DNA from: Alphaproteobacteria bacterium
Lineage (GTDB): Bacteria > Pseudomonadota > Alphaproteobacteria > Caedimonadales > UBA9215
Length of the DNA: 64,000 nucleotides
Direction of reading: 5' to 3'
Assembly (NCBI GenBank): GCA_009993885.1
Contig: JAACSN010000005.1
Coordinates: 25,495-89,494 of the forward strand
The notes beneath the pieces were generated by a model. That model was given only the letters and a program-made list of their open reading frames with translations, did not search any database and was not told the origin of the DNA. A program made the translations under genes and the position numbers. Positions 4,985 through 47,831 of the stretch are shown piece by piece (positions within the stretch are counted from its first letter, which is position 1; each line of letters begins with the position of its first letter).

Positions 4985-5362
4985 TCAAATTTCTTGGTAT
5001 TTGTGAGGTTGAGAGCGGCAATGCGCAACAAGGCGATCTTCGTCTTTAAGGTCAATGATCTCGGCAAAAACACGACGTTCAAAACCGCCCCTCTTTTGCT
5101 GTTTATTAGCCTGAGCCTCTGAAATATCCGTTTTTGAGAAACCCAGATTTTTAGCCAAGGCTTCTATGATGTCTTGGGCATCGGCAAGCTCTTCAAGAAC
5201 TTCTTCCAAGGTAGCCGCTGCCATAACTTCTTCTGCTTCTTCAACAAGTTTCCGTTTAAGTTCATGGGTAAACTCGCTTTTAGACAACACGCGAATGCCC
5301 TGCCAATGATCAAGATCGGCAAATTTATCTCTAATAAGCTTACGAACAAGGAATTTAGGCAT
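4985..5362 (-). CDS. MazG-superfamily nucleotide pyrophosphohydrolase (phosphoribosyl-ATP pyrophosphohydrolase-like small protein)
   Basis: KLIRDKF...LVEEAEEV...EELADAQDIIEALA...KQQKRGGFERRVF matches the house-cleaning NTP pyrophosphatase pattern as I recall it. Confidence 0.55.
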   Translation of the reverse strand: MPKFLVRKLIRDKFADLDHWQGIRVLSKSEFTHELKRKLVEEAEEVMAAATLEEVLEELADAQDIIEALAKNLGFSKTDISEAQANKQQKRGGFERRVFAEIIDLKDEDRLVAHCRSQPHKYQEI

Positions 5363-5402
5363 AAAGAACTTAACGTTATGGGGGGATCATGACCAAAAAA
5401 AA

Positions 5403-7674: not shown

Positions 7675-8256
7675 TCACGGTGTCCCCTTTTCACGAGCCG
7701 CTTTAAAGGCATTCCCGTACCAGCTAAGCTCTTTGATAAATTGGTTAGATTTTTTTGTAAGGGAGTCATCAAGGCTTTTCCCGTCTTCATCCAATTTATT
7801 CTGAATCATCCCGATACCGAAAATTGTCGGAATGGGGCTCATCCCAAAAATACAAAGGGTTGTTAACAGATGCATCGATACGCGCGCCCCACCCAAGGCT
7901 CCCATGGAATAGGTGACTAAACCGACGGGTTTGTGAAAAAATTCTATATAAAAATGATCCATTAAGTTCATCAGACCCGGTTGCATAGTGCCGTTGTATT
8001 CGCCGGAAACAATCACAAATACATCCGTCTTATTTTGCAATAAATCATGCAGCTCTTCCATTTCCCGCGGTGCCGTACCGGTTTCATAGTCAATATAGCG
8101 TTTTTTTAAAATCGGAAAATCATAAGCCATTGCATCCACAAAAGTAACAATATGTCCTTGAGACTTCAAAGCTTTTTGGAGATGCCTAACGGCTTTAATT
8201 CCTTGGCGGCCTTCTCGATAAGAGCCGTAAAGAAGAGTAATATGAAGAGCCGTCAT
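7675..8256 (-). CDS. NAD(P)H-dependent FMN reductase family oxidoreductase
   Basis: The flavodoxin-like N-terminus ITLLYGSYREGRQG and the SGEYNGTMQPGLMNLMDH pattern are typical of the FMN_red family. Confidence 0.75.
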   Translation of the reverse strand: MTALHITLLYGSYREGRQGIKAVRHLQKALKSQGHIVTFVDAMAYDFPILKKRYIDYETGTAPREMEELHDLLQNKTDVFVIVSGEYNGTMQPGLMNLMDHFYIEFFHKPVGLVTYSMGALGGARVSMHLLTTLCIFGMSPIPTIFGIGMIQNKLDEDGKSLDDSLTKKSNQFIKELSWYGNAFKAAREKGTP

Positions 8257-8423
8257 TGCACTTTACTCATGCAAACGTGAATTTCAAACTTAGAACCTAT
8301 AAGCTTAGGCCACATATGTTGGGAGTGAATCCCCCTTTTTATATCATTTTTCATCAAACCGAAAGGCTCCTGTTTTTCATATCCTTTGATTCTATTATAG
8401 ATAGATTGATAATCCGTTAAAAG

Positions 8424-8458
8424 AACAAAAAAATGCCGTCGACCAAGCAACAGCATTT
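8424..8458 (-). terminator. Possible rho-independent terminator downstream of the Cys-rich protein gene
   Basis: On the minus strand the sequence reads AATGCTG-12 nt loop-CGGCATT followed by a T-run. The stem includes one G-U pair and the loop is long. Confidence 0.35.
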
Positions 8459-8487
8459 TAAGAAAGTTATAAAAAACCTTTATAAAG

Positions 8488-8811
8488 TTACATTTTATTC
8501 ACGCAATTTTTAACATCGTTCGGAGGGCACATTAACTTACAGGCCTCACCGACTTTTTTCTTTGTACCTGATTTTCCACAAGTAAAACGACCGCATCCCT
8601 TTTGGCAAAGAAGTTTGATGGCTGTTTTTGCCTTTGAATCCGCAATATCATCATAATTCTTAGAGGCTTGATAAGCCTTTGCGGCATTAAAATATCCCTT
8701 TGCTTTCTCGGCATAGCCCATTGCCGTTTCGGTCAGACCTGCAGAAGCCTCTTGAACACCCGTAAAGGCTAGCAAAAATGCAAAACTTATTAGTTTGACT
8801 ATTTTTTTCAT
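8488..8811 (-). CDS. Small secreted cysteine-rich protein (107 aa), unknown function
   Basis: The signal peptide is MKKIVKLISFAFLLAFTGVQEASA. The C-terminal half is Lys-rich and has 7 Cys (CQKGCGRFTCGKSG...CKLMCPPNDVKNC). Confidence 0.55.
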   Translation of the reverse strand: MKKIVKLISFAFLLAFTGVQEASAGLTETAMGYAEKAKGYFNAAKAYQASKNYDDIADSKAKTAIKLLCQKGCGRFTCGKSGTKKKVGEACKLMCPPNDVKNCVNKM

Positions 8812-8863
8812 TTCATTATATCTCCTGTTTTCAATAGAATATCTTATTTATTAACTTTAATTA

Positions 8864-8878
8864 TTAATAAATAGTTAA
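8864..8878. promoter_or_regulatory. TTAA-N7-TTAA motif (CtrA-box consensus) upstream of the Cys-rich protein gene
   Basis: TTAATAAATAGTTAA lies 53-67 nt upstream of the ATG at 8811 on the minus strand. The surrounding sequence is very AT-rich, so a chance match is plausible. Confidence 0.3.
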
Positions 8879-9123
8879 ATTATAATTGTAATGATTGATT
8901 TTTCCTTAAGGTGTTGAAAAAAATGACTCCTTAAAAATTTTATAAAAGAAAAGTGAGTCAATCGGTTGCCTAAGACAGTTTCTTGCCTACCTACGATTCT
9001 CCGGCCCTGACACTCACCAATACCCTCGGTCAATTTATTGATAAACGCCATAGAGCGGACGGTCTTATCCGAATTCCGAGATTCCTCCATCCCGTGCCTT
9101 TCATGGGAGAATTAAAGATTTTT

Positions 9124-9138
9124 TTAATTAGGATTTAA
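9124..9138. promoter_or_regulatory. TTAA-N7-TTAA motif (CtrA-box consensus) upstream of the YjeF_N gene
   Basis: TTAATTAGGATTTAA lies 59-73 nt upstream of the ATG at 9197. Confidence 0.25.
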
Positions 9139-9196
9139 TGCTTTATAAAGCTTTTGTTCCTATACTGGAATTAAGCGTAGGATTCCGGAGGTCTCT

Positions 9197-40799: not shown

Positions 40800-41762
40800 A
40801 TGAGTACGTTAAAAACAAGAATGAAAAAAGAAATTAATCACATCACATCCGATGCCCTAGAGAGAGCGCAACAAACGCTTCGAAACGGTGACCTTATCGG
40901 ATTGCCGACAGAAACGGTTTACGGACTGGCGGCCAATGCCCTGAGCGACAAAGCTGTTGCAAAGATTTATACCTTAAAAGAGCGTCCCCGTTTCAATCCC
41001 CTTATTGCTCATTTTCCCAATGCCGCCGAGGCTCAAAAATATGTGCATTTTAATGAGTGGGCCAAAACACTTTCCGAGACTTTTTGGCCCGGCCCCCTCA
41101 CCCTGATTCTTAAAAAGAAAGAAGACTGCGGCATTTCTCTTCTCGCGACAGCAGGTCTTGATACCCTTGCCGTTCGAGTGCCTGCTCACCCGATTGCTCA
41201 ACTGCTTTTACAAGGCCTCGAGTTTCCCTTGGTTGCTCCCAGTGCGAACCCGTCGGAATCTTTAAGCCCGACAACAGCTCAACATGTTAAGCGTTCTTTT
41301 CCCGATCTCCTTGTCGTAGACGGAGGTTCCTGCACCGTCGGCCTTGAATCAACCATTGTAGATCTGACAGGAAACATTCCTGTTATTTTACGCCCGGGGC
41401 TCTTAACTAAAAATGATATTGAAAAAGCCCTTCTTCTTACCCTTGGCGATAAAGCTGAAAGCAACGTCATCAAAGCACCGGGGCAGCTTAAACGTCATTA
41501 TGCCCCCTCTATTCCCTTACGCCTTAATATAAAAAATCTTCATGAAGGTGAAGCGCTGTTGTCCTTTGGCCCTCACACTTTTACGGCTCGAAAGGAAATC
41601 AACTTAAGCCTCACTTGCAACCTTGAAGAAGCAGCAGGCAATCTTTTTGCAGCGTTAGCAGAGCTCGATTCTTCTCAATATAAGGGCATTGCCGTTATGC
41701 CTATTCCAAACGACGGCATTGGTCTTGCCGTTAATGATCGCCTGAACCGTGCTTCGGCTTAA
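40800..41762 (+). CDS. tsaC: L-threonylcarbamoyladenylate synthase (Sua5/YwlC/TsaC family, long form with Sua5 C-domain)
   Basis: GDLIGLPTETVYGLAANA, KERPRFNPLIAHF, PGPLTLIL, APSANPS and the C-terminal Sua5 domain are present. Confidence 0.88.
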   Translation: MSTLKTRMKKEINHITSDALERAQQTLRNGDLIGLPTETVYGLAANALSDKAVAKIYTLKERPRFNPLIAHFPNAAEAQKYVHFNEWAKTLSETFWPGPLTLILKKKEDCGISLLATAGLDTLAVRVPAHPIAQLLLQGLEFPLVAPSANPSESLSPTTAQHVKRSFPDLLVVDGGSCTVGLESTIVDLTGNIPVILRPGLLTKNDIEKALLLTLGDKAESNVIKAPGQLKRHYAPSIPLRLNIKNLHEGEALLSFGPHTFTARKEINLSLTCNLEEAAGNLFAALAELDSSQYKGIAVMPIPNDGIGLAVNDRLNRASA

Positions 41763-41769
41763 CACTCTT
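41707..41769. repeat. Direct repeat copy 1 (63 bp): last 18 codons of tsaC, the stop codon and 7 nt
   Basis: CAAACGACGGCATTGGTCTTGCCGTTAATGATCGCCTGAACCGTGCTTCGGCTTAACACTCTT is identical at all 63 positions to 43559-43621. The flanking bases differ on both sides. Confidence 0.95.
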
Positions 41770-41770
41770 A

Positions 41771-43459
41771 TCAAGAAACGCCTTTGGAAAGGCAACACGT
41801 TCTAAAAGCGTTTCGTAGAAAGTATTTCAACGTTTTCAAAGGAAATTCCTCCGAACCGGAGTGAGGAATATGAACCGTAAACCTTAGATAAGGATTACGC
41901 GCCCTTGTATCTGACAAATTTGGCAACCAATACCCAACAGCAGACCCCGGCTTGGGTTTGCTATCATATTTACCGTTGACGGCTTTCAAAAAAGAATCAA
42001 AATCGGTCTTAGAAACAGGTCTTGTACCCGCTCCTATAACGGCTTTATAAAATGCCTCGGCTTTCTCACCGAAATTAAATTTCGGAAGTGTATTACCAAC
42101 TGTAGCAGCAGAAAATTCAACAGAAGGTAAGGCCGCATCTTCTTCATTTCTTATATAGGCCGGAATAATGCGAGATACAACTTCTTCAAAATACCATTCG
42201 TCAAAATGAAACTCCGAAAGCGCTTCATCTCCTTCAAAAGCAGCGGCAACATTAGTTTCTTCTACCTTACTGCCTTCCTCTGCCACAACGACTTTTTCAA
42301 TAGTTTCAGCATCTATAACAACAAGGGGCATAATATCCGAATTCTTTATAATAGGTTCTCCCGCAGCTGATGCAGACTCTATAGAAACTCTATGGAGTGA
42401 TCTCCCTCTTTTTTGAGAGTTCTTTTTTTTTGCCTTACGTCTCGCTTTCTTTTTGCCTTTACTTTGATTTTCGGCCTTCATTTTAAGATTTTTGACTTCA
42501 GGTTTTGAGGGATTTTCTATAGAAACGAGATCTCCATAGCTTTCTAATAAAAATTCATGAATAAACGTGCCAATATTCCCTTCCATTTCTGAGAATTTAA
42601 ATTTTCCTCTCTCCAAAAAATTTGAGAACATGAGGTTACGATATTTCTCACTGATATTTGTGTGAATATTAAACATCTTGTGAGACCTAATATAGGTTCG
42701 AGCATGGGAAAATAGAAGGCTTTCTAAGGCAGACCATTCATAGGCTGATCTTTGGCCTTTAGGAGTTGGGAAAACAGACTCTAAAAGCACTATGATATTT
42801 ACGAATAACTTGGAACAAAAGAGATTATTCTCTCCTTCATATAGCTCTGATAAAAGAGCTTCTTCCTTATCACTTAGCCCGTGAAAAACATTAGGATAAG
42901 AAGAAACATCACCACTTGAAAGAACGTCGAACATTCTCTTCACCAAGGATCCTAAATCAGAATTTTCAAATTCTCTATCCTCCGATTTTAAATTACAGCA
43001 GTTATAGAAAGATCTAATCGCCCCCCTAAGAACAGCAGTGATGTCTTGTTTGACACGTCCGACCAGTTCTGCAGAAATTTCTTCATTTCGATGCTCAAAT
43101 AAAAGTTCCATGGAAGCATAAAGCCCCTCAGAAAAACAATAATCAGTAAAACGATCTTGCACCTGAAAGAAATAGAAAGGTAAATAAGAAGGGCAGTTGA
43201 AATCTCTATAGAAATCCACAGCAGACTGTGGAATGTCCGTCTTAATTTCTGAAACACGTACCGGGTCTATTTCCCCTTGTCGGGTATGTACGTCTAAATA
43301 CTCCAAGTGCGCTGCTGTCCAAGCGCGATACTCTTCTAACTCCTCCCATACTTTTGTAAGAACTTTAAGCTTAGACATATCATTATCATCAATCCTAGTC
43401 CCGTTAGAAAGACTTATAAAAAAACAAAAAGAAATGAGAAACCGAAATATAAATGACAT
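41771..43459 (-). CDS. Hypothetical secreted protein (562 aa) with NLS-like basic cluster and HicA/YcfA-like C-terminal region
   Basis: The signal peptide is MSFIFRFLISFCFFISLSNG. The basic cluster KGKKKARRKAKKKNSQKRGR spans residues 334-353. The C-terminus DFDSFLKAVNGKYDSKPKPGSAVGY...LRFTVHIPHSGSEEFPLKTLKYFLRNAF resembles the HicA fold pattern as I recall it. The gene is visibly more AT-rich than its neighbours. Confidence 0.6.
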   Translation of the reverse strand: MSFIFRFLISFCFFISLSNGTRIDDNDMSKLKVLTKVWEELEEYRAWTAAHLEYLDVHTRQGEIDPVRVSEIKTDIPQSAVDFYRDFNCPSYLPFYFFQVQDRFTDYCFSEGLYASMELLFEHRNEEISAELVGRVKQDITAVLRGAIRSFYNCCNLKSEDREFENSDLGSLVKRMFDVLSSGDVSSYPNVFHGLSDKEEALLSELYEGENNLFCSKLFVNIIVLLESVFPTPKGQRSAYEWSALESLLFSHARTYIRSHKMFNIHTNISEKYRNLMFSNFLERGKFKFSEMEGNIGTFIHEFLLESYGDLVSIENPSKPEVKNLKMKAENQSKGKKKARRKAKKKNSQKRGRSLHRVSIESASAAGEPIIKNSDIMPLVVIDAETIEKVVVAEEGSKVEETNVAAAFEGDEALSEFHFDEWYFEEVVSRIIPAYIRNEEDAALPSVEFSAATVGNTLPKFNFGEKAEAFYKAVIGAGTRPVSKTDFDSFLKAVNGKYDSKPKPGSAVGYWLPNLSDTRARNPYLRFTVHIPHSGSEEFPLKTLKYFLRNAFRTCCLSKGVS

Positions 43460-43558
43460 AACAAAAATCCATATACTAAATATTTAAAATATTTAAAATA
43501 TATATAACATTATAAAAAATAAATAAAGAAAATAATTTATTTTATTTTATAATTGCTT

Positions 43559-43621
43559 CAAACGACGGCATTGGTCTTGCCGTTAATGATCGCCTGAACC
43601 GTGCTTCGGCTTAACACTCTT
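43559..43621. repeat. Direct repeat copy 2 (63 bp), an orphan tsaC 3' fragment in an AT-rich intergenic region
   Basis: It is identical to 41707-41769. The upstream flank is non-coding, very AT-rich sequence. Confidence 0.95.
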
Positions 43622-43690: not shown

Positions 43691-43738
43691 CAAAAAGAAT
43701 GTAATTTTAAATTGAATAATAACTTAAAAGGTGTATTT

Positions 43739-45964
43739 ATGTTTCGTTATTTATGTTTAACCTCAGCTTTTTCATTAATTACTTCAAGTGTTGCCTTGGC
43801 TGAAATGCCAACGGAAGACTCGATATTTACAGAACCCCAAAGCACTCAAAAGACAGAGCGGGGAAAAATAACGCCGGAACGTCTTGAAAATCTACAAAAA
43901 CTCATGAACAAAGGAAGCGAAGCTCCTGCCCCCAAAGAACATGAACCCGTTGGTAAACTTTCGAAAGAACGTATAGAGGTTTTTGGAGAATCCGTTTTAA
44001 AAGAACAGGGTGAGGCCATAAAAAAAGAGACTGTTTCCAAGACCGTTGAAACACCAAAAGCAGATACGGAAAATGAAGGAATAGTCTCGTCAAAGACAGG
44101 TCAAAAATCGATAGAATTAACACAAGAACAAGAAAAAGCAATGAGGGGAAAGTCAGGACACTCCTATTTTGAGGAATTGACTCACGATCTCTACACGTCT
44201 CCTCTAGGGAAATGGCTTTCTGATGTTTATGGTGCGTCACGTGAGGAAATAACACGCTGGTTCAGTGAAACCGAGGCCGATCGCTATGGCTTAAAACGCT
44301 TACGTGATAATGCCATTGACGAATATGATTACGAAGTGCGAAAAGCAGCCCCTCAATACAACCAAATCACTAAAGACATTTCTGACGAAAACATTAAATG
44401 GGTTGGGAAGATCATAGACAGTATTGTAAAGGATCTTGGTGTGGAAACACCTCCGGGATTTAGTATCTTTACCATGGGCTCCCTTGCACGGGGCGAAAGC
44501 GGTTTCTACACGGATCTCGAGATTGGCTTTTTAGTTAATGACGATGCCATGACACCTGAAAATATGAAAACACTTCTTTTAATTGCGAATTCTTTAAACC
44601 AACGCCTTTTCTTCCTAGGGGAACACCCCGACTACGGCGGCTACGGTATGCGTCTTGATGAAGCTGCCAATGCCCCGTTATACCTCAGGTTTGGATATGA
44701 TAAGTTGACACCGGAAGAAGCTAGAAAACAAATGGTTTCTGCTCTAACCAATTATGATTTCGAAAAAATCCCTTGGGGGGGAAGCCGTCTCTTTATTTCA
44801 ACACCATCGAAATTGGCGGCACACTCAGATCCTGACTACATAGAAAAAGCAGATAGTGAAGATGCCTATCTCAATGGTCAAAAACGCAAGAAAATGATTG
44901 AGGATGAGTACAAGAAAGCACGCTCCGACCCTAAGAATGCAGGAATCTCGAATACACAGTTAAAAGAAGGTATTCGCTATTTAGTGGATCTCATCGAAAA
45001 ACCTCTTGGGGTAAAGGATCGCCGCGAATCCAACAACATTGTTGTTTTAGGTCGCAATATGATGAATATTTACGGTGAGCAAGAAACCTTTGACACTTTT
45101 ATAAAGGCCAGAGAACCCTTTTTATCCGGAACGGCAAAAGATAACGCTGATCGCTATGTCTCTCGTCGCCACGAGCTTGCAATGGAAACAATGAAAGAAG
45201 ATATTATAAAACGTGGCGGAGACCCTTCAAGCATCTTCCTTACAGGGAAGTTGGGAGACAAGGTCGACATTAAACGCGAACTCTACCGTTTTAGCGAACA
45301 GTTTGTAACAAACCTAGGATTTTATTTTGATATCAAAACACAAAATACAATAGACATTGTTGGCGAACTGATGGAACAAGGCATTATTTCCCAAGAAATT
45401 GGAGAAAAACTTCAAGACTACATGAACTTTATGGTCGGATTGCGCCTTAAACAACAACGGGTTTTAAGTTCACAAGCACATGCCGTGTACCTAAATGAAG
45501 AAGCCTTTCAAAAAGATATTAGAAAGCTGCAAGAAGAGAATTCTGCCCTTGAGAAAAATCTAGCTTTCTTAGAAGAGAGTCAATCTTCAAAAAAAGCTCT
45601 GACGGACGCAAGAAAAGCCGTAACAGACAAAAAACATGAAATTGACGAACTTAAAAAAATGGCACCCGGTAAGATCGTGTCAACGGAAGAAATTGATATA
45701 CTCAATACAAAATACCTTCCTTTTGCTATAGAGCTTTTCCAACTGTCAAAGGATTGGATTTCAGGAAAAGACAATGCCCTTGGCGGCAAAGGTGCAGCAA
45801 TCGGCATTAAAGCCATCGCGCCTTCTCTCCCTACCTCGGAGGGGACAGATACTGAGGGTTCTTCTTCCGAAAAGAAGCTTCCCCTAATAGAAAGGCCGAA
45901 TTTGCCCGGCCCGGGAATCATTCCTTCAGAAACTGAAAGTGCTACGGCAGCCCCGGCAGCCTAA
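43739..45964 (+). CDS. Signal-peptide protein with DUF294-type nucleotidyltransferase core and DUF294_C-like helical domain plus C-terminal coiled coil
   Basis: The signal peptide is MFRYLCLTSAFSLITSSVALA. The NTase motif is FTMGSLARGESGFYTDLEIGFLV (GS-x10-D-x-E), followed by GEHPDYGGYGMRLDEAANAP. The later segment DIKRELYRFSEQFVTNLGFYFDIKTQNTIDIVGELMEQGIISQEIGEKLQDYMNFMVGLRLKQQ resembles the DUF294 substrate-binding domain. The ORF track starts at TTG 43712; the ATG at 43739 is preferred. Confidence 0.65.
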   Translation: MFRYLCLTSAFSLITSSVALAEMPTEDSIFTEPQSTQKTERGKITPERLENLQKLMNKGSEAPAPKEHEPVGKLSKERIEVFGESVLKEQGEAIKKETVSKTVETPKADTENEGIVSSKTGQKSIELTQEQEKAMRGKSGHSYFEELTHDLYTSPLGKWLSDVYGASREEITRWFSETEADRYGLKRLRDNAIDEYDYEVRKAAPQYNQITKDISDENIKWVGKIIDSIVKDLGVETPPGFSIFTMGSLARGESGFYTDLEIGFLVNDDAMTPENMKTLLLIANSLNQRLFFLGEHPDYGGYGMRLDEAANAPLYLRFGYDKLTPEEARKQMVSALTNYDFEKIPWGGSRLFISTPSKLAAHSDPDYIEKADSEDAYLNGQKRKKMIEDEYKKARSDPKNAGISNTQLKEGIRYLVDLIEKPLGVKDRRESNNIVVLGRNMMNIYGEQETFDTFIKAREPFLSGTAKDNADRYVSRRHELAMETMKEDIIKRGGDPSSIFLTGKLGDKVDIKRELYRFSEQFVTNLGFYFDIKTQNTIDIVGELMEQGIISQEIGEKLQDYMNFMVGLRLKQQRVLSSQAHAVYLNEEAFQKDIRKLQEENSALEKNLAFLEESQSSKKALTDARKAVTDKKHEIDELKKMAPGKIVSTEEIDILNTKYLPFAIELFQLSKDWISGKDNALGGKGAAIGIKAIAPSLPTSEGTDTEGSSSEKKLPLIERPNLPGPGIIPSETESATAAPAA

Positions 45965-46043: not shown

Positions 46044-47831
46044 TTATTCCTCTTCGCCTTTTTCTTTTGCAGACGCTTTTTTAGCAGGTGCTTTTTTCTT
46101 AGCGGCCGGCTTTTCAGCAGCCTCATCGGAAACCTTTGCTTTATCAAGGGCAGCACCCAAGATATCACCGAGGCTTGCACCGCTATCAGCAGACCCGTAA
46201 GTTGCCATTGCTTCTTTTTCTTCAGCCATTTCACGTGCCTTAACGGAAAGAGAAATAGCACGTGTTTTCTTATCGATGTTCATCACACGCGCATCAATCT
46301 TTTCACCAATGGCAAAACGATCCGGACGTTGTTCGGAACGATCACGAGCAAGATCGGCCTTACGAATGAATCCCTTAGCGTCTCCAACGGAAACATCAAG
46401 ACCGGCATCAAGGATCTTTGTGATTTCACAAGTAACAATGCTTCCTTTTTTGATGCCGTCAACAGCTTCGGAGAACGGATCGGCAACAAGTTGTTTAACA
46501 CCGAGGGAAATACGCTCTTTTTCAGCGTCAATTTCAAGAACTTTAACCCTAATGGCTTCACCAACTTTATAATCCTTAATGGCTTCGTCAGCGTTTTTCT
46601 CCCAAGAAAGGTCAGACATATGAACCATACCGTCAAGATCATCATTCACAGCAACAAACAAACCGAATTCCGTAATATTACGCACGGTACCGTCAATTTC
46701 CGCACCGGGTGCGAAGTCATCGACAACTTTAGCCCAAGGATTCTCGGAACATTGCTTTAGACCCAAGGCAATACGACGCTTAGCCGTGTCGATTTCAAGA
46801 ATAGAAGCTTCAATTTCTTGGCTGGTTGATAAAATTTTACCGGGATGAACGTTCTTTTTGGTCCAGCTCATTTCAGAAACGTGGATTAACCCTTCAACAC
46901 CGGGTTGGATTTCAACGAAAGCCCCATAGTCGGTAATATTCGTAACCTTACCGGAAACTTTATCGCCGACACTGAGTTTCTCGATGGCTGATTGCCAAGG
47001 ATCGCTCTCAAGTTGTTTCATACCGAGGGAGATACGCCCCGTGTCACGGTTGTAACGAATCACTTGAACATTAATATTTTGACCGACTTGGATCATTTCA
47101 CTCGGATGCCCCAAACGTGTCCAAGACATATCCGTAATATGCAAGAGACCGTCAACACCGCCAAGATCGACGAATGCACCGTAGTCAGTGATATTTTTAA
47201 CAACGCCTTCCATTTGAACGCCTTCGGCAACCTTACCAAGAACTTCGTCACGAAGACCCGCTCTTGATTCTTCAAGAATTGCGCGACGTGAAACAACGAT
47301 GTTGCCGCGTGAGCGATCCATTTTCAAAATCATAAAAGGTTGTTCGATATTCATCAAAGATGTCACATCCTTAATAGGACGTACATCAAGTTGGCTACCG
47401 GGCAAGAAGGCAACAGCTCCCTTAAGGTCCACGGTAAACCCGCCCTTAACACGACCGAAAATCGTACCGGGAACTTGCTCTTCGGCTTTATGGAGCTTCT
47501 CGAGATCAATCCACGAGGCTTCACGGCGGGCTTTTTCATGGGAGAGGCCGATCATGCCGTCTTTGTCTTCCATGCGCTCGATATAAACGTCGATTTCATC
47601 AAACTTCTTAATCTCAGGCGCTTTATCGCCATAAGCGAATTCCTTTAAAGGAACACGGCCTTCAGATTTTAAGCCGACGTCAACGATGGCACTATCACCG
47701 ATAACGTTGACAACAACACCTTTAATCACGGTTCCGACAAGATCCATAGAAGCAAGAGGTGTTTCATTAAGGAGAGCTTCAAAGCTTTCCATAGATATAT
47801 TTTCTTCAGTTTTTTTATTCTGTGCAGTCAT
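46044..47831 (-). CDS. rpsA: 30S ribosomal protein S1
   Basis: The 595-aa product has six S1 repeats (e.g. GKVTNITDYGAFVEI, GTVRNITEFGLFV) and an acidic/basic tail. The cmk-rpsA order is conserved. Confidence 0.96.
   Translation of the reverse strand: MTAQNKKTEENISMESFEALLNETPLASMDLVGTVIKGVVVNVIGDSAIVDVGLKSEGRVPLKEFAYGDKAPEIKKFDEIDVYIERMEDKDGMIGLSHEKARREASWIDLEKLHKAEEQVPGTIFGRVKGGFTVDLKGAVAFLPGSQLDVRPIKDVTSLMNIEQPFMILKMDRSRGNIVVSRRAILEESRAGLRDEVLGKVAEGVQMEGVVKNITDYGAFVDLGGVDGLLHITDMSWTRLGHPSEMIQVGQNINVQVIRYNRDTGRISLGMKQLESDPWQSAIEKLSVGDKVSGKVTNITDYGAFVEIQPGVEGLIHVSEMSWTKKNVHPGKILSTSQEIEASILEIDTAKRRIALGLKQCSENPWAKVVDDFAPGAEIDGTVRNITEFGLFVAVNDDLDGMVHMSDLSWEKNADEAIKDYKVGEAIRVKVLEIDAEKERISLGVKQLVADPFSEAVDGIKKGSIVTCEITKILDAGLDVSVGDAKGFIRKADLARDRSEQRPDRFAIGEKIDARVMNIDKKTRAISLSVKAREMAEEKEAMATYGSADSGASLGDILGAALDKAKVSDEAAEKPAAKKKAPAKKASAKEKGEEE

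Follow-up and report, generated by a model that had tools for sequence, protein, structure and literature searches.

We examined a gene in a 64,000-nucleotide (nt) stretch of DNA from an uncultured alphaproteobacterium, a symbiont of the Holosporales that lives inside host cells (the window; coordinates given without another label are positions within it). The gene is an open reading frame (ORF) on the minus strand (41771..43459) that starts with ATG, includes its stop codon within these coordinates and encodes 562 amino acids (aa); judged by its sequence, the product is the window's member of a small, previously undescribed Holosporales protein family. Our best reading, held tentatively and with somewhat less than even confidence, is that of an exported, fast-evolving, nucleic-acid-binding host-interaction protein with a HicA/dsRBD-like tail. 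An initial reading made from the letters of the DNA (the sequence-only reading) had described a gene on a mobile-looking cassette, encoding a secreted ORFan with a basic cluster resembling a nuclear localisation signal (NLS) and a HicA/YcfA-like C-terminus. Its 562-aa minus-strand ORF with an ATG start was real, and all of the C-terminal strings that it quoted were found in the translation. Overall, that reading was largely correct in what it observed and partly borne out in its interpretation, its nucleomodulin proposal staying a hypothesis.

The family was recovered when 1.84 billion representatives were scanned exhaustively with phmmer, and 19 relatives came back at E ≤ 1e-3, seven of them at E ≤ 1e-30; with 19 homologous clusters in existence, the label ORFan had to be given up. 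The relatives are 500-660 aa long, and none carries a Pfam domain or an informative name. Scans of the window protein and all family members against Pfam, NCBIfam, PADLOC and PHROGs gave no match, and PDB sequence and profile searches gave noise only (designed helical repeats, L17, MVD1), in agreement with the earlier statement that no described family has this architecture. A word-indexed search with the window protein yielded, besides the identical protein on 25 contigs, only a fragment of 79% identity, the same type of search with the C-terminal alignment yielded one protein, and a scan of genome contigs yielded nothing with the single protein and only Holosporales bacterium UBA9215 with a five-sequence alignment. 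UBA9215 is the closest genome match to the family. The RpsA protein of the window is identical to proteins of NCBI metagenome-assembled genomes (MAGs) labelled 'Alphaproteobacteria bacterium', and its 90% cluster includes a 'Holosporales bacterium' protein; L28 and ProC of contig L014, which carries a more distant orthologue of the gene, cluster with UBA9215 MAG proteins. Holosporales live only in association with hosts, which are mostly protists (PMC11909080). Because homologues were rare and those that could be placed were all Holosporales, the family lacks the wide distribution among free-living bacteria that the sequence-only reading had named as fatal to an effector role. One genome (L005) contains two tandem family paralogues (8001-9983 and 10213-12012) with 71-82% DNA identity over long stretches; no paralogue was found in the window. 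A window ORF of similar size (26296-27981, minus strand; 561 aa), with a signal-peptide-like start (MLRNYKKSIKRIPYSFAALLISISYLQAS) and no match in Pfam, PADLOC or PHROGs, was considered as a paralogue and rejected as unrelated to the family.

Alignment of the family revealed a common plan: a leader, an N-terminal region that differs from one subfamily to another, a polybasic tract, an acidic stretch, an F-x-F-x-E-W-Y motif and a C-terminal module. In the window protein the leader, read from the sequence, is a Sec-type signal peptide comprising residues 1-20 (MSFIFRFLISFCFFISLSNG; 43400..43459, minus strand) and followed by TRIDD. It has an n-h-c organisation (MSFIFR / FLISFCFFISL / SNG), with cleavage before T by inspection; the n-region, the hydrophobic h-region and the small residues at -3/-1 are those expected of a Sec-exported protein. 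The hydrophobic signal peptide noticed earlier thus held up, with equivalent leaders in 13 of the 14 N-terminally complete relatives. For identical DNA one gene caller chose Met28 as the start; the long form beginning at the ATG at 43459 is favoured because hydrophobic leaders are kept at the protein level in distant relatives. The N-terminal region (residues 21-325; 42485..43399, minus strand) is kept only within the nearer subfamily, where it carries the motifs WEELExYRxWTA, DYxxSE and GExNLFC, and it had no Pfam or PDB match except low-complexity or designed-helix noise.

The polybasic tract (residues 334-353, KGKKKARRKAKKKNSQKRGR; 42401..42460, minus strand) contains 13 K/R in 20 residues in an NLS-like pattern. 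In the 44 large window ORFs scored, no other 20-mer is as basic (runner-up, 9 K/R). Of the 14 relatives whose sequence extends this far, 10 have a tract with at least 10 K/R per 20 residues at the equivalent place, so that the dense basic run reported earlier is both present and positionally conserved across the family. Such tracts are not specific for an NLS, as they also bind membranes or envelope polymers; nuclear targeting by the tract is plausible from its pattern. The C-terminus of RpsA (46044-46130, minus strand) is a lysine/alanine-rich tail (AAEKPAAKKKAPAKKASAKEKGEEE), and lysine-rich extensions in this genome are therefore not confined to the family. The tract is followed by an acidic, low-complexity linker (residues 354-414; 42218..42400, minus strand), delimited by alignment and fast-evolving; within the linker of family member P0007 (contig L006, 9247-9354) there is a 54-nt tandem duplication whose copies are 93% identical. 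The conserved C-terminal module (residues 415-562; 41774..42217, minus strand) consists of the F-x-F-x-E-W-Y helix, a second helix and a HicA-like core. An AlphaFold model of this module (148 aa) had a mean predicted local distance difference test score (pLDDT) of 83.6, with values above 90 from about residue 460.

The core of the module (residues 479-562; 41774..42025, minus strand), modelled separately (84 aa; pLDDT 83.8), was predicted to contain a helix (484-493), a bridge (497-498), two strands (507-513 and 524-530) and a final helix (541-555). The predicted order helix-strand-strand-strand-helix is that of HicA, with strand 1 reduced to the 2-residue bridge. A family profile was compared by hhalign with an alignment of 14 HicA sequences, both PDB-verified and plasmid-annotated, which gave a probability of 58-68% (P = 5e-5 to 1e-4, score 28.6-29.3); after six more diverse plasmid HicAs had been added, these values rose to 80.3% (P = 1.4e-5, score 31.0). 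None of 840 column-, block- or core-shuffled profiles attained the real score, the shuffle maximum being 24.8. The alignment was collinear over HicA columns 7-67 of 75 and paired HicA landmarks with positions conserved in the family: helix 1 ending in Gly, the G-S pair, the Pro after strand 2, the P-H of 'P-H-s-g' after strand 3 and the last helix with its pattern 'P-x-x-T-L-x-x-i-l-k-x-a-G'. All family members were weakly positive against a HicA hidden Markov model. In the window protein, the stretch G505-S-A507...L512-P513-N514 (41918..41947, minus strand) pairs its G-S with the HicA G-S-H and has Ala at the catalytic His position. In H530-x-P-H533 (41861..41872, minus strand), H530 ends strand 3 and H533 pairs with the histidine of the HicA 'P-x-H'; P513, H530 and H533 are invariant across the family alignment. 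The catalytic-His column holds D, Q, A, T or E in the relatives and never a conserved His, which extends to the whole family the loss of the GSHH histidine pointed out by the sequence-only reading.

Direct searches for HicA were silent. Pfam HicA_toxin (PF07927) had no match to the window protein at E ≤ 1 nor to 15 family C-termini at E ≤ 10, and no HicA chain was matched in PDB sequence and profile searches. Foldseek of both AlphaFold models against the PDB gave nothing significant and no HicA among the top 50; recurrent weak matches to E2/UBC folds (TM-score ~0.36, probability 0.1-0.2) were judged to be noise, despite an 'LPN' in the family that recalls the E2 'HPN'. In a Foldseek search of BFVD, a mycobacteriophage protein annotated as HicA toxin had the highest TM-score among the viral matches (0.46), with an E-value of 0.42 that is not significant. 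Two of the checks proposed with the sequence-only reading, HMMER against Pfam YcfA/HicA and Foldseek of a structural model, came out negative, and the HicA/YcfA-like assignment is partly confirmed by the profile alignment, its shuffle controls and the element order. The HMMER silence is weak evidence, because HicA proteins are themselves hard to link by phmmer: 1WHZ and 4C26 were matched at an E-value of only ~0.15-0.2. A word-indexed search with 1WHZ recovered only Thermus relatives. Taken together, these data make it most likely that the last ~85 residues are a genuine, very divergent HicA/dsRBD-like domain, a HicA-like tail being moderately supported by the profile probability, the element order and the phage HicA as the viral match of best TM-score.

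HicA toxins have been defined as 50-100-aa single-domain RNases that have a catalytic His behind Gly-Ser and are partnered by HicB; in studied HicAs this histidine (His23, His24, His28 or His36) stands at the start of strand 2 (PMC11594946). The window protein shares with HicA toxins (PF07927, COG1724; PDB 1WHZ, 4C26, 6HPB) the predicted order of elements and a collinear profile alignment. It differs in that its domain is the tail of a 562-aa protein with a Sec-type leader and not a free polypeptide, in the absence of a His after Gly-Ser and the presence of a new invariant histidine, H530, on strand 3, in a 10-residue insert in the strand 2-3 hairpin, and in the lack of a Pfam-level match and of HicB. 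No HicB-like gene was found beside the gene, whose neighbours are sua5 and a nucleotidyltransferase gene, or at any relative locus examined. If the two predicted 7-residue strands pair as a regular hairpin, H530 would lie directly across from position 507, beside the place of the HicA catalytic His. The module may thus be either an RNase with a relocated histidine or a purely binding module.

To place the gene in its evolutionary context we compared it with its orthologues. Against the UBA9215 orthologue (contig L007; synonymous divergence, dS, >1), the ratio of nonsynonymous divergence (dN) to dS was 0.36 in the N-terminal part, 0.15 in the middle, 0.68 in the linker (here residues 331-414) and 0.12 in the C-terminal module. 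Values of 0.12-0.36 over so deep a divergence identify a real, selected gene, and a pseudogene or chance ORF was rejected on this basis. The dN of the gene in this comparison (0.45) was about four times that of the adjacent nucleotidyltransferase gene (0.12). Against a close lineage (L003/L004, dS ~0.1-0.3) dN/dS was 0.6-0.8. The 79%-identical orthologue of that lineage (L003, 1216-2916; L004, 2-1675) has an in-frame TGA at codon 134 (GGA to TGA) in two independent assemblies. It also looks mosaic, because its middle (codons 134-330, dS 0.32 with indels) is far more diverged than its ends (dS ~0.1). In UBA9215 (L007, 2624-4350) a frameshift in a T-run splits the orthologue into ORFs of 176 and 380 aa, and reflects either a real pseudogene or a homopolymer or assembly error in the MAG. 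Since nonsense, frameshift and absent alleles exist, the function of the gene is not essential. At the uvrB-sua5-nucleotidyltransferase locus, the gene is a long-standing resident that evolves fast and can be dispensed with.

The absent allele was found through a direct repeat. Copy 1 (41707..41769, plus strand) consists of the last 56 nt of sua5, stop codon included, plus 7 nt, and ends 1 nt before the stop codon of the gene; copy 2 (43559..43621, plus strand) is identical at 63 of 63 positions and lies 99 nt upstream of the ATG. The copies, 1852 nt apart from start to start, enclose exactly the gene and 99 nt of AT-rich upstream sequence (43460..43558, minus strand), a putative promoter region with no strong consensus promoter and a weak GGA 11 nt before the ATG. 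The repeat-gene-repeat arrangement recurred in independent samples, and in contigs of the L003 lineage the upstream copy was present and the sequence broke off exactly where the downstream copy would begin. The G+C content of this region dips to 0.34-0.37, compared with ~0.43 for the window. The predicted empty site (the end of sua5, then TAGAACCTTCC) was used as a query in a scan of metagenome contigs; excision of the unit as a circle would be expected to give the junction ATTGCTT-repeat-ATCAAGAAACGCC. The empty-site scan revealed one contig, L018 (CAJDWK010000081.1), which carries prmC-uvrB-sua5 at dS ~0.2 from the window. At 150-231 of this contig the sua5 stop codon and a single 63-nt copy run straight into the sequence that lies after copy 2 in the window, and the gene is absent. 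Homology to the window ends 58 nt past the repeat (L018 1-90, minus-strand reading), where it gives way, up to the end of the contig, to a hairpin-rich stretch (CCTCCAGCCAAGCTGGAGG, ACCGCTAGAAGCGGT) with no counterpart in the window. This stretch possibly marks the border of a repeat element, and L018 may lack the nucleotidyltransferase gene as well. About six neutral differences between the repeat copies would be expected since the split from L018, and their complete identity in the window hints at gene conversion or a recent event.

Integrative islands that target tRNA genes or gene ends duplicate the 3' end of the target gene, and the unit resembles them in a direct repeat that restores the sua5 3' end on both sides of the insert and in its empty-site allele. 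It differs from them as a single-gene unit of 1.85 kb that lacks a recombinase and sits at a locus where distant relatives already have an orthologue. No integrase, transposase or recombinase was found in the unit or within 10 kb. The orthologues in L007 and L014 (dS >1) stand in the order nucleotidyltransferase, gene, two small genes and sua5, with no repeat; the same locus is occupied by orthologues in L003, L007, L014 and L006, and the site is occupied in all 22+22 contigs examined from the window population. Phage and plasmid records yielded no family member, and tblastn of two core domains against plasmids gave chance matches only. An integron cassette was rejected, as there was no attC-like structure and no integrase, and the folding of the repeat region was unremarkable (z = -1.0). 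What we observe is a repeat-bounded presence/absence polymorphism at an ancestral locus, because the repeat and the empty site occur where distant orthologues already reside. The mobile-looking cassette of the sequence-only reading gains from the perfect repeat and the L018 empty site and loses from the missing recombinase and the syntenic, repeat-free orthologues at dS >1; the term 'mobile-looking cassette' is overstated for what is an old resident and not a roaming cassette. The polymorphism arose either by deletion in L018 through recombination between the repeats or by re-insertion of the unit with a duplication. The 63-nt repeat permits precise loss of the gene in the window lineage.

To our knowledge, hardly anything has been learnt of the ways in which Holosporales manipulate the protists that harbour them, and the only secreted protein studied is PRP1 of Holospora. 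In Holospora obtusa, PRP1, a periplasmic protein of 63 kDa that has a Sec-type leader, leaves the periplasm, accumulates in the host macronucleus and binds DNA weakly (PMC9866348). By description rather than by sequence, the window protein resembles PRP1 in bacterial order, in size and in its Sec-type leader. PRP1 was reported with a Pfam D5_N-like stretch (PMC9866348), and no member of the present family shows D5_N. By analogy with PRP1, the window protein would be exported to the periplasm by Sec and then be released towards the host. There the polybasic tract and the dsRBD-like module would let it bind nucleic acid, which it would possibly cleave with the relocated histidine pair; the polybasic tract could also mediate nuclear import. 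Nucleomodulins are effectors with a eukaryotic-type NLS, mostly substrates of type III, IV or VI secretion that have no Sec leader. The window protein shares with them a lineage-restricted, fast-evolving nature in an intracellular bacterium and a classical-looking K/R cluster; it differs in its Sec leader and in being known here from sequence alone. Taken as a single joint reading, in which Holosporales have a lineage-specific effector family whose HicA-derived RNA-binding or RNase module was rebuilt by moving its catalytic His from strand 2 to the facing strand 3 (H-x-P-H) and is fused to a Sec leader and a conserved NLS-like tract, the protein leaves the periplasm, enters the host nucleus or cytosol and binds or cuts host RNA, and the gene is in the window lineage precisely gained or lost between repeats at the end of sua5, this chain of events is improbable.

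As a Sec leader combined with a polybasic tract and a putative toxin-derived module, the family is a concrete, testable candidate effector family. If the proposal is true, a toxin-antitoxin RNase fold has become part of a secreted protein, its active site remodelled; if the protein is purely periplasmic, it is one more uncharacterised lineage-specific family. The presence/absence polymorphism, the nonsense allele and the frameshift allele amount to rapid turnover, which is typical of host-interaction genes. Several points weigh against a host-interaction protein. The gene has a nonsense codon in the close lineage, a frameshift in UBA9215 and is absent from L018; the HicA catalytic histidine is missing family-wide, and there is no HicB partner. 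Host association derives from the relatives that could be placed, the distant members having no taxonomic placement. Delivery to the host beyond the periplasm, nuclear import and nucleic-acid binding are predictions from sequence patterns.

Four other explanations were weighed against this reading. The resemblance to HicA could be convergent or due to chance, in which case the C-terminus would be a small alpha/beta domain of a new fold, its own H-x-P-H serving for instance as a metal site or as the site of a hydrolase with no relation to HicA; this we consider unlikely, although it deserves to be taken seriously. It would account for the missing HMMER matches to Pfam HicA_toxin and PDB HicA chains, for a Foldseek result with nothing significant and weak matches equally to E2/UBC folds, for an hhalign probability below the 90-95% usually required, and for the rudimentary strand 1 and the hairpin insert. 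It sits badly with an alignment that is collinear over the whole HicA domain and matches every landmark except the catalytic His, with a score that climbed as the HicA profile was diversified, and with a real score above all shuffles, block shuffles included; the HMMER silence counts for little where 1WHZ and 4C26 barely recognise one another. If the domain is a HicA, the protein might instead be a polymorphic-toxin-like antibacterial weapon, an exported carrier with a C-terminal HicA-type RNase directed against competing bacteria, as in S8-PTS and RHS toxins. HicA domains do occur at the C-termini of secreted polymorphic toxins, namely S8-PTS BetaH toxins and an RHS toxin (PMC9424270), and the window protein resembles these in that a HicA-type module forms the very end of a larger exported protein whose upstream parts vary; tandem paralogues in one genome would also fit. 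The HicA domains of these toxins, unlike the putative one of the window protein, share ~50% identity with toxin-antitoxin HicAs and retain the catalytic His, and the toxins come from Gram-positive bacteria and have immunity genes and trafficking domains (PMC9424270). Pfam scans found no RHS, PT-HINT, pretoxin or trafficking domain in the present family. At the loci examined there was no conserved small downstream immunity gene: the gene faces a convergent sua5 or uvrB in the window and L006, other genes follow in L012 and L014, and the non-conserved small ORFs have no HicB or immunity match. With the catalytic His lost, and with few bacterial competitors for an obligate intracellular bacterium (PMC11909080), an antibacterial weapon is very unlikely.

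A protein of the periplasm or cell envelope with a role inside the bacterium itself, its linker a spacer or a polymer or lipid binder and its C-terminal module a protein- or ligand-binding anchor, would need no host targeting. We rate this explanation as rather doubtful, even though a Sec leader proves export across the inner membrane only, no dedicated secretion signal or secretion-system gene was found nearby, the gene stands among housekeeping genes at a conserved locus, and a variable N-terminal part with a conserved C-terminal module also suits an anchoring domain. The nonsense, frameshift and absent alleles in close relatives are hard to square with a core envelope function, as is the roughly fourfold dN relative to the neighbouring gene; the protein has no match to TolA, TonB, OmpA_C, LysM, SPOR or other envelope-binding domains, and its invariant His pair points to chemistry or metal binding more than to an anchor. 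A TolA/TonB-like periplasm-spanning protein with a charged linker and a small C-terminal domain was rejected on the lack of a Pfam or fold match and of tol or exb context, and a type IX secretion C-terminal domain or an autotransporter was rejected on taxonomy, size and fold. The last explanation concerns the gene rather than the protein: a small mobile or integrative cassette, directed at the sua5 3' end and moving between strains, would carry the gene. The perfect repeat that doubles the end of sua5 and brackets precisely the gene with its 99 upstream nucleotides, the single-copy empty site in a strain at dS ~0.2, the G+C dip and the repeat copies that are identical where neutral drift should have separated them all favour a cassette. 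They are opposed by the missing recombinase, the repeat-free orthologues at the same locus, the occupied site in every population contig and the want of phage or plasmid copies. Homologous recombination between the repeat copies explains the empty site equally well, and a tandem duplication followed by partial deletion would yield such a repeat, tandem paralogues being present in L005. We regard a travelling cassette as distinctly improbable.

The remaining genes identify the window as chromosomal core DNA (aspS, dnaE, asnB, thyX, glnA, a histidine kinase gene, uvrC and polA). The gene is flanked on one side by hisS-prfA-prmC-uvrB-sua5 and on the other by the nucleotidyltransferase gene, rpsA, cmk, a dCMP deaminase gene and fumC. 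The nucleotidyltransferase gene (43712..45964, plus strand) is divergent from the gene, and its product matched DUF294 and DUF294_C and, weakly, SidM_N in Pfam, the last being the N-terminal AMPylation domain of Legionella SidM/DrrA. The protein (741/750 aa) has a signal peptide of its own (MFRYLCLTSAFSLITSSVALA, cleavage before E) and an intact GS-x10-D-L-E motif. Its gene is paired with the family gene in all close relatives, as well as in L003, L007 and L014, and evolves under purifying selection (dN/dS 0.09-0.22). It is possible that this neighbour is a secreted nucleotidyltransferase effector. In the more distant Holosporales, two extra small genes separate the family gene from sua5 (L014, 2271-3470; L007, 4351-4492); they encode a 128-aa protein and a 238-aa predicted membrane protein, neither with a match in Pfam, and are missing in the window lineage. 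Family member P0007 adjoins uvrB. Elsewhere in contig L006 a perfect 90-nt direct repeat (5000-5089 and 5275-5364; 275 nt apart) occupies an intergenic region near rpmH.

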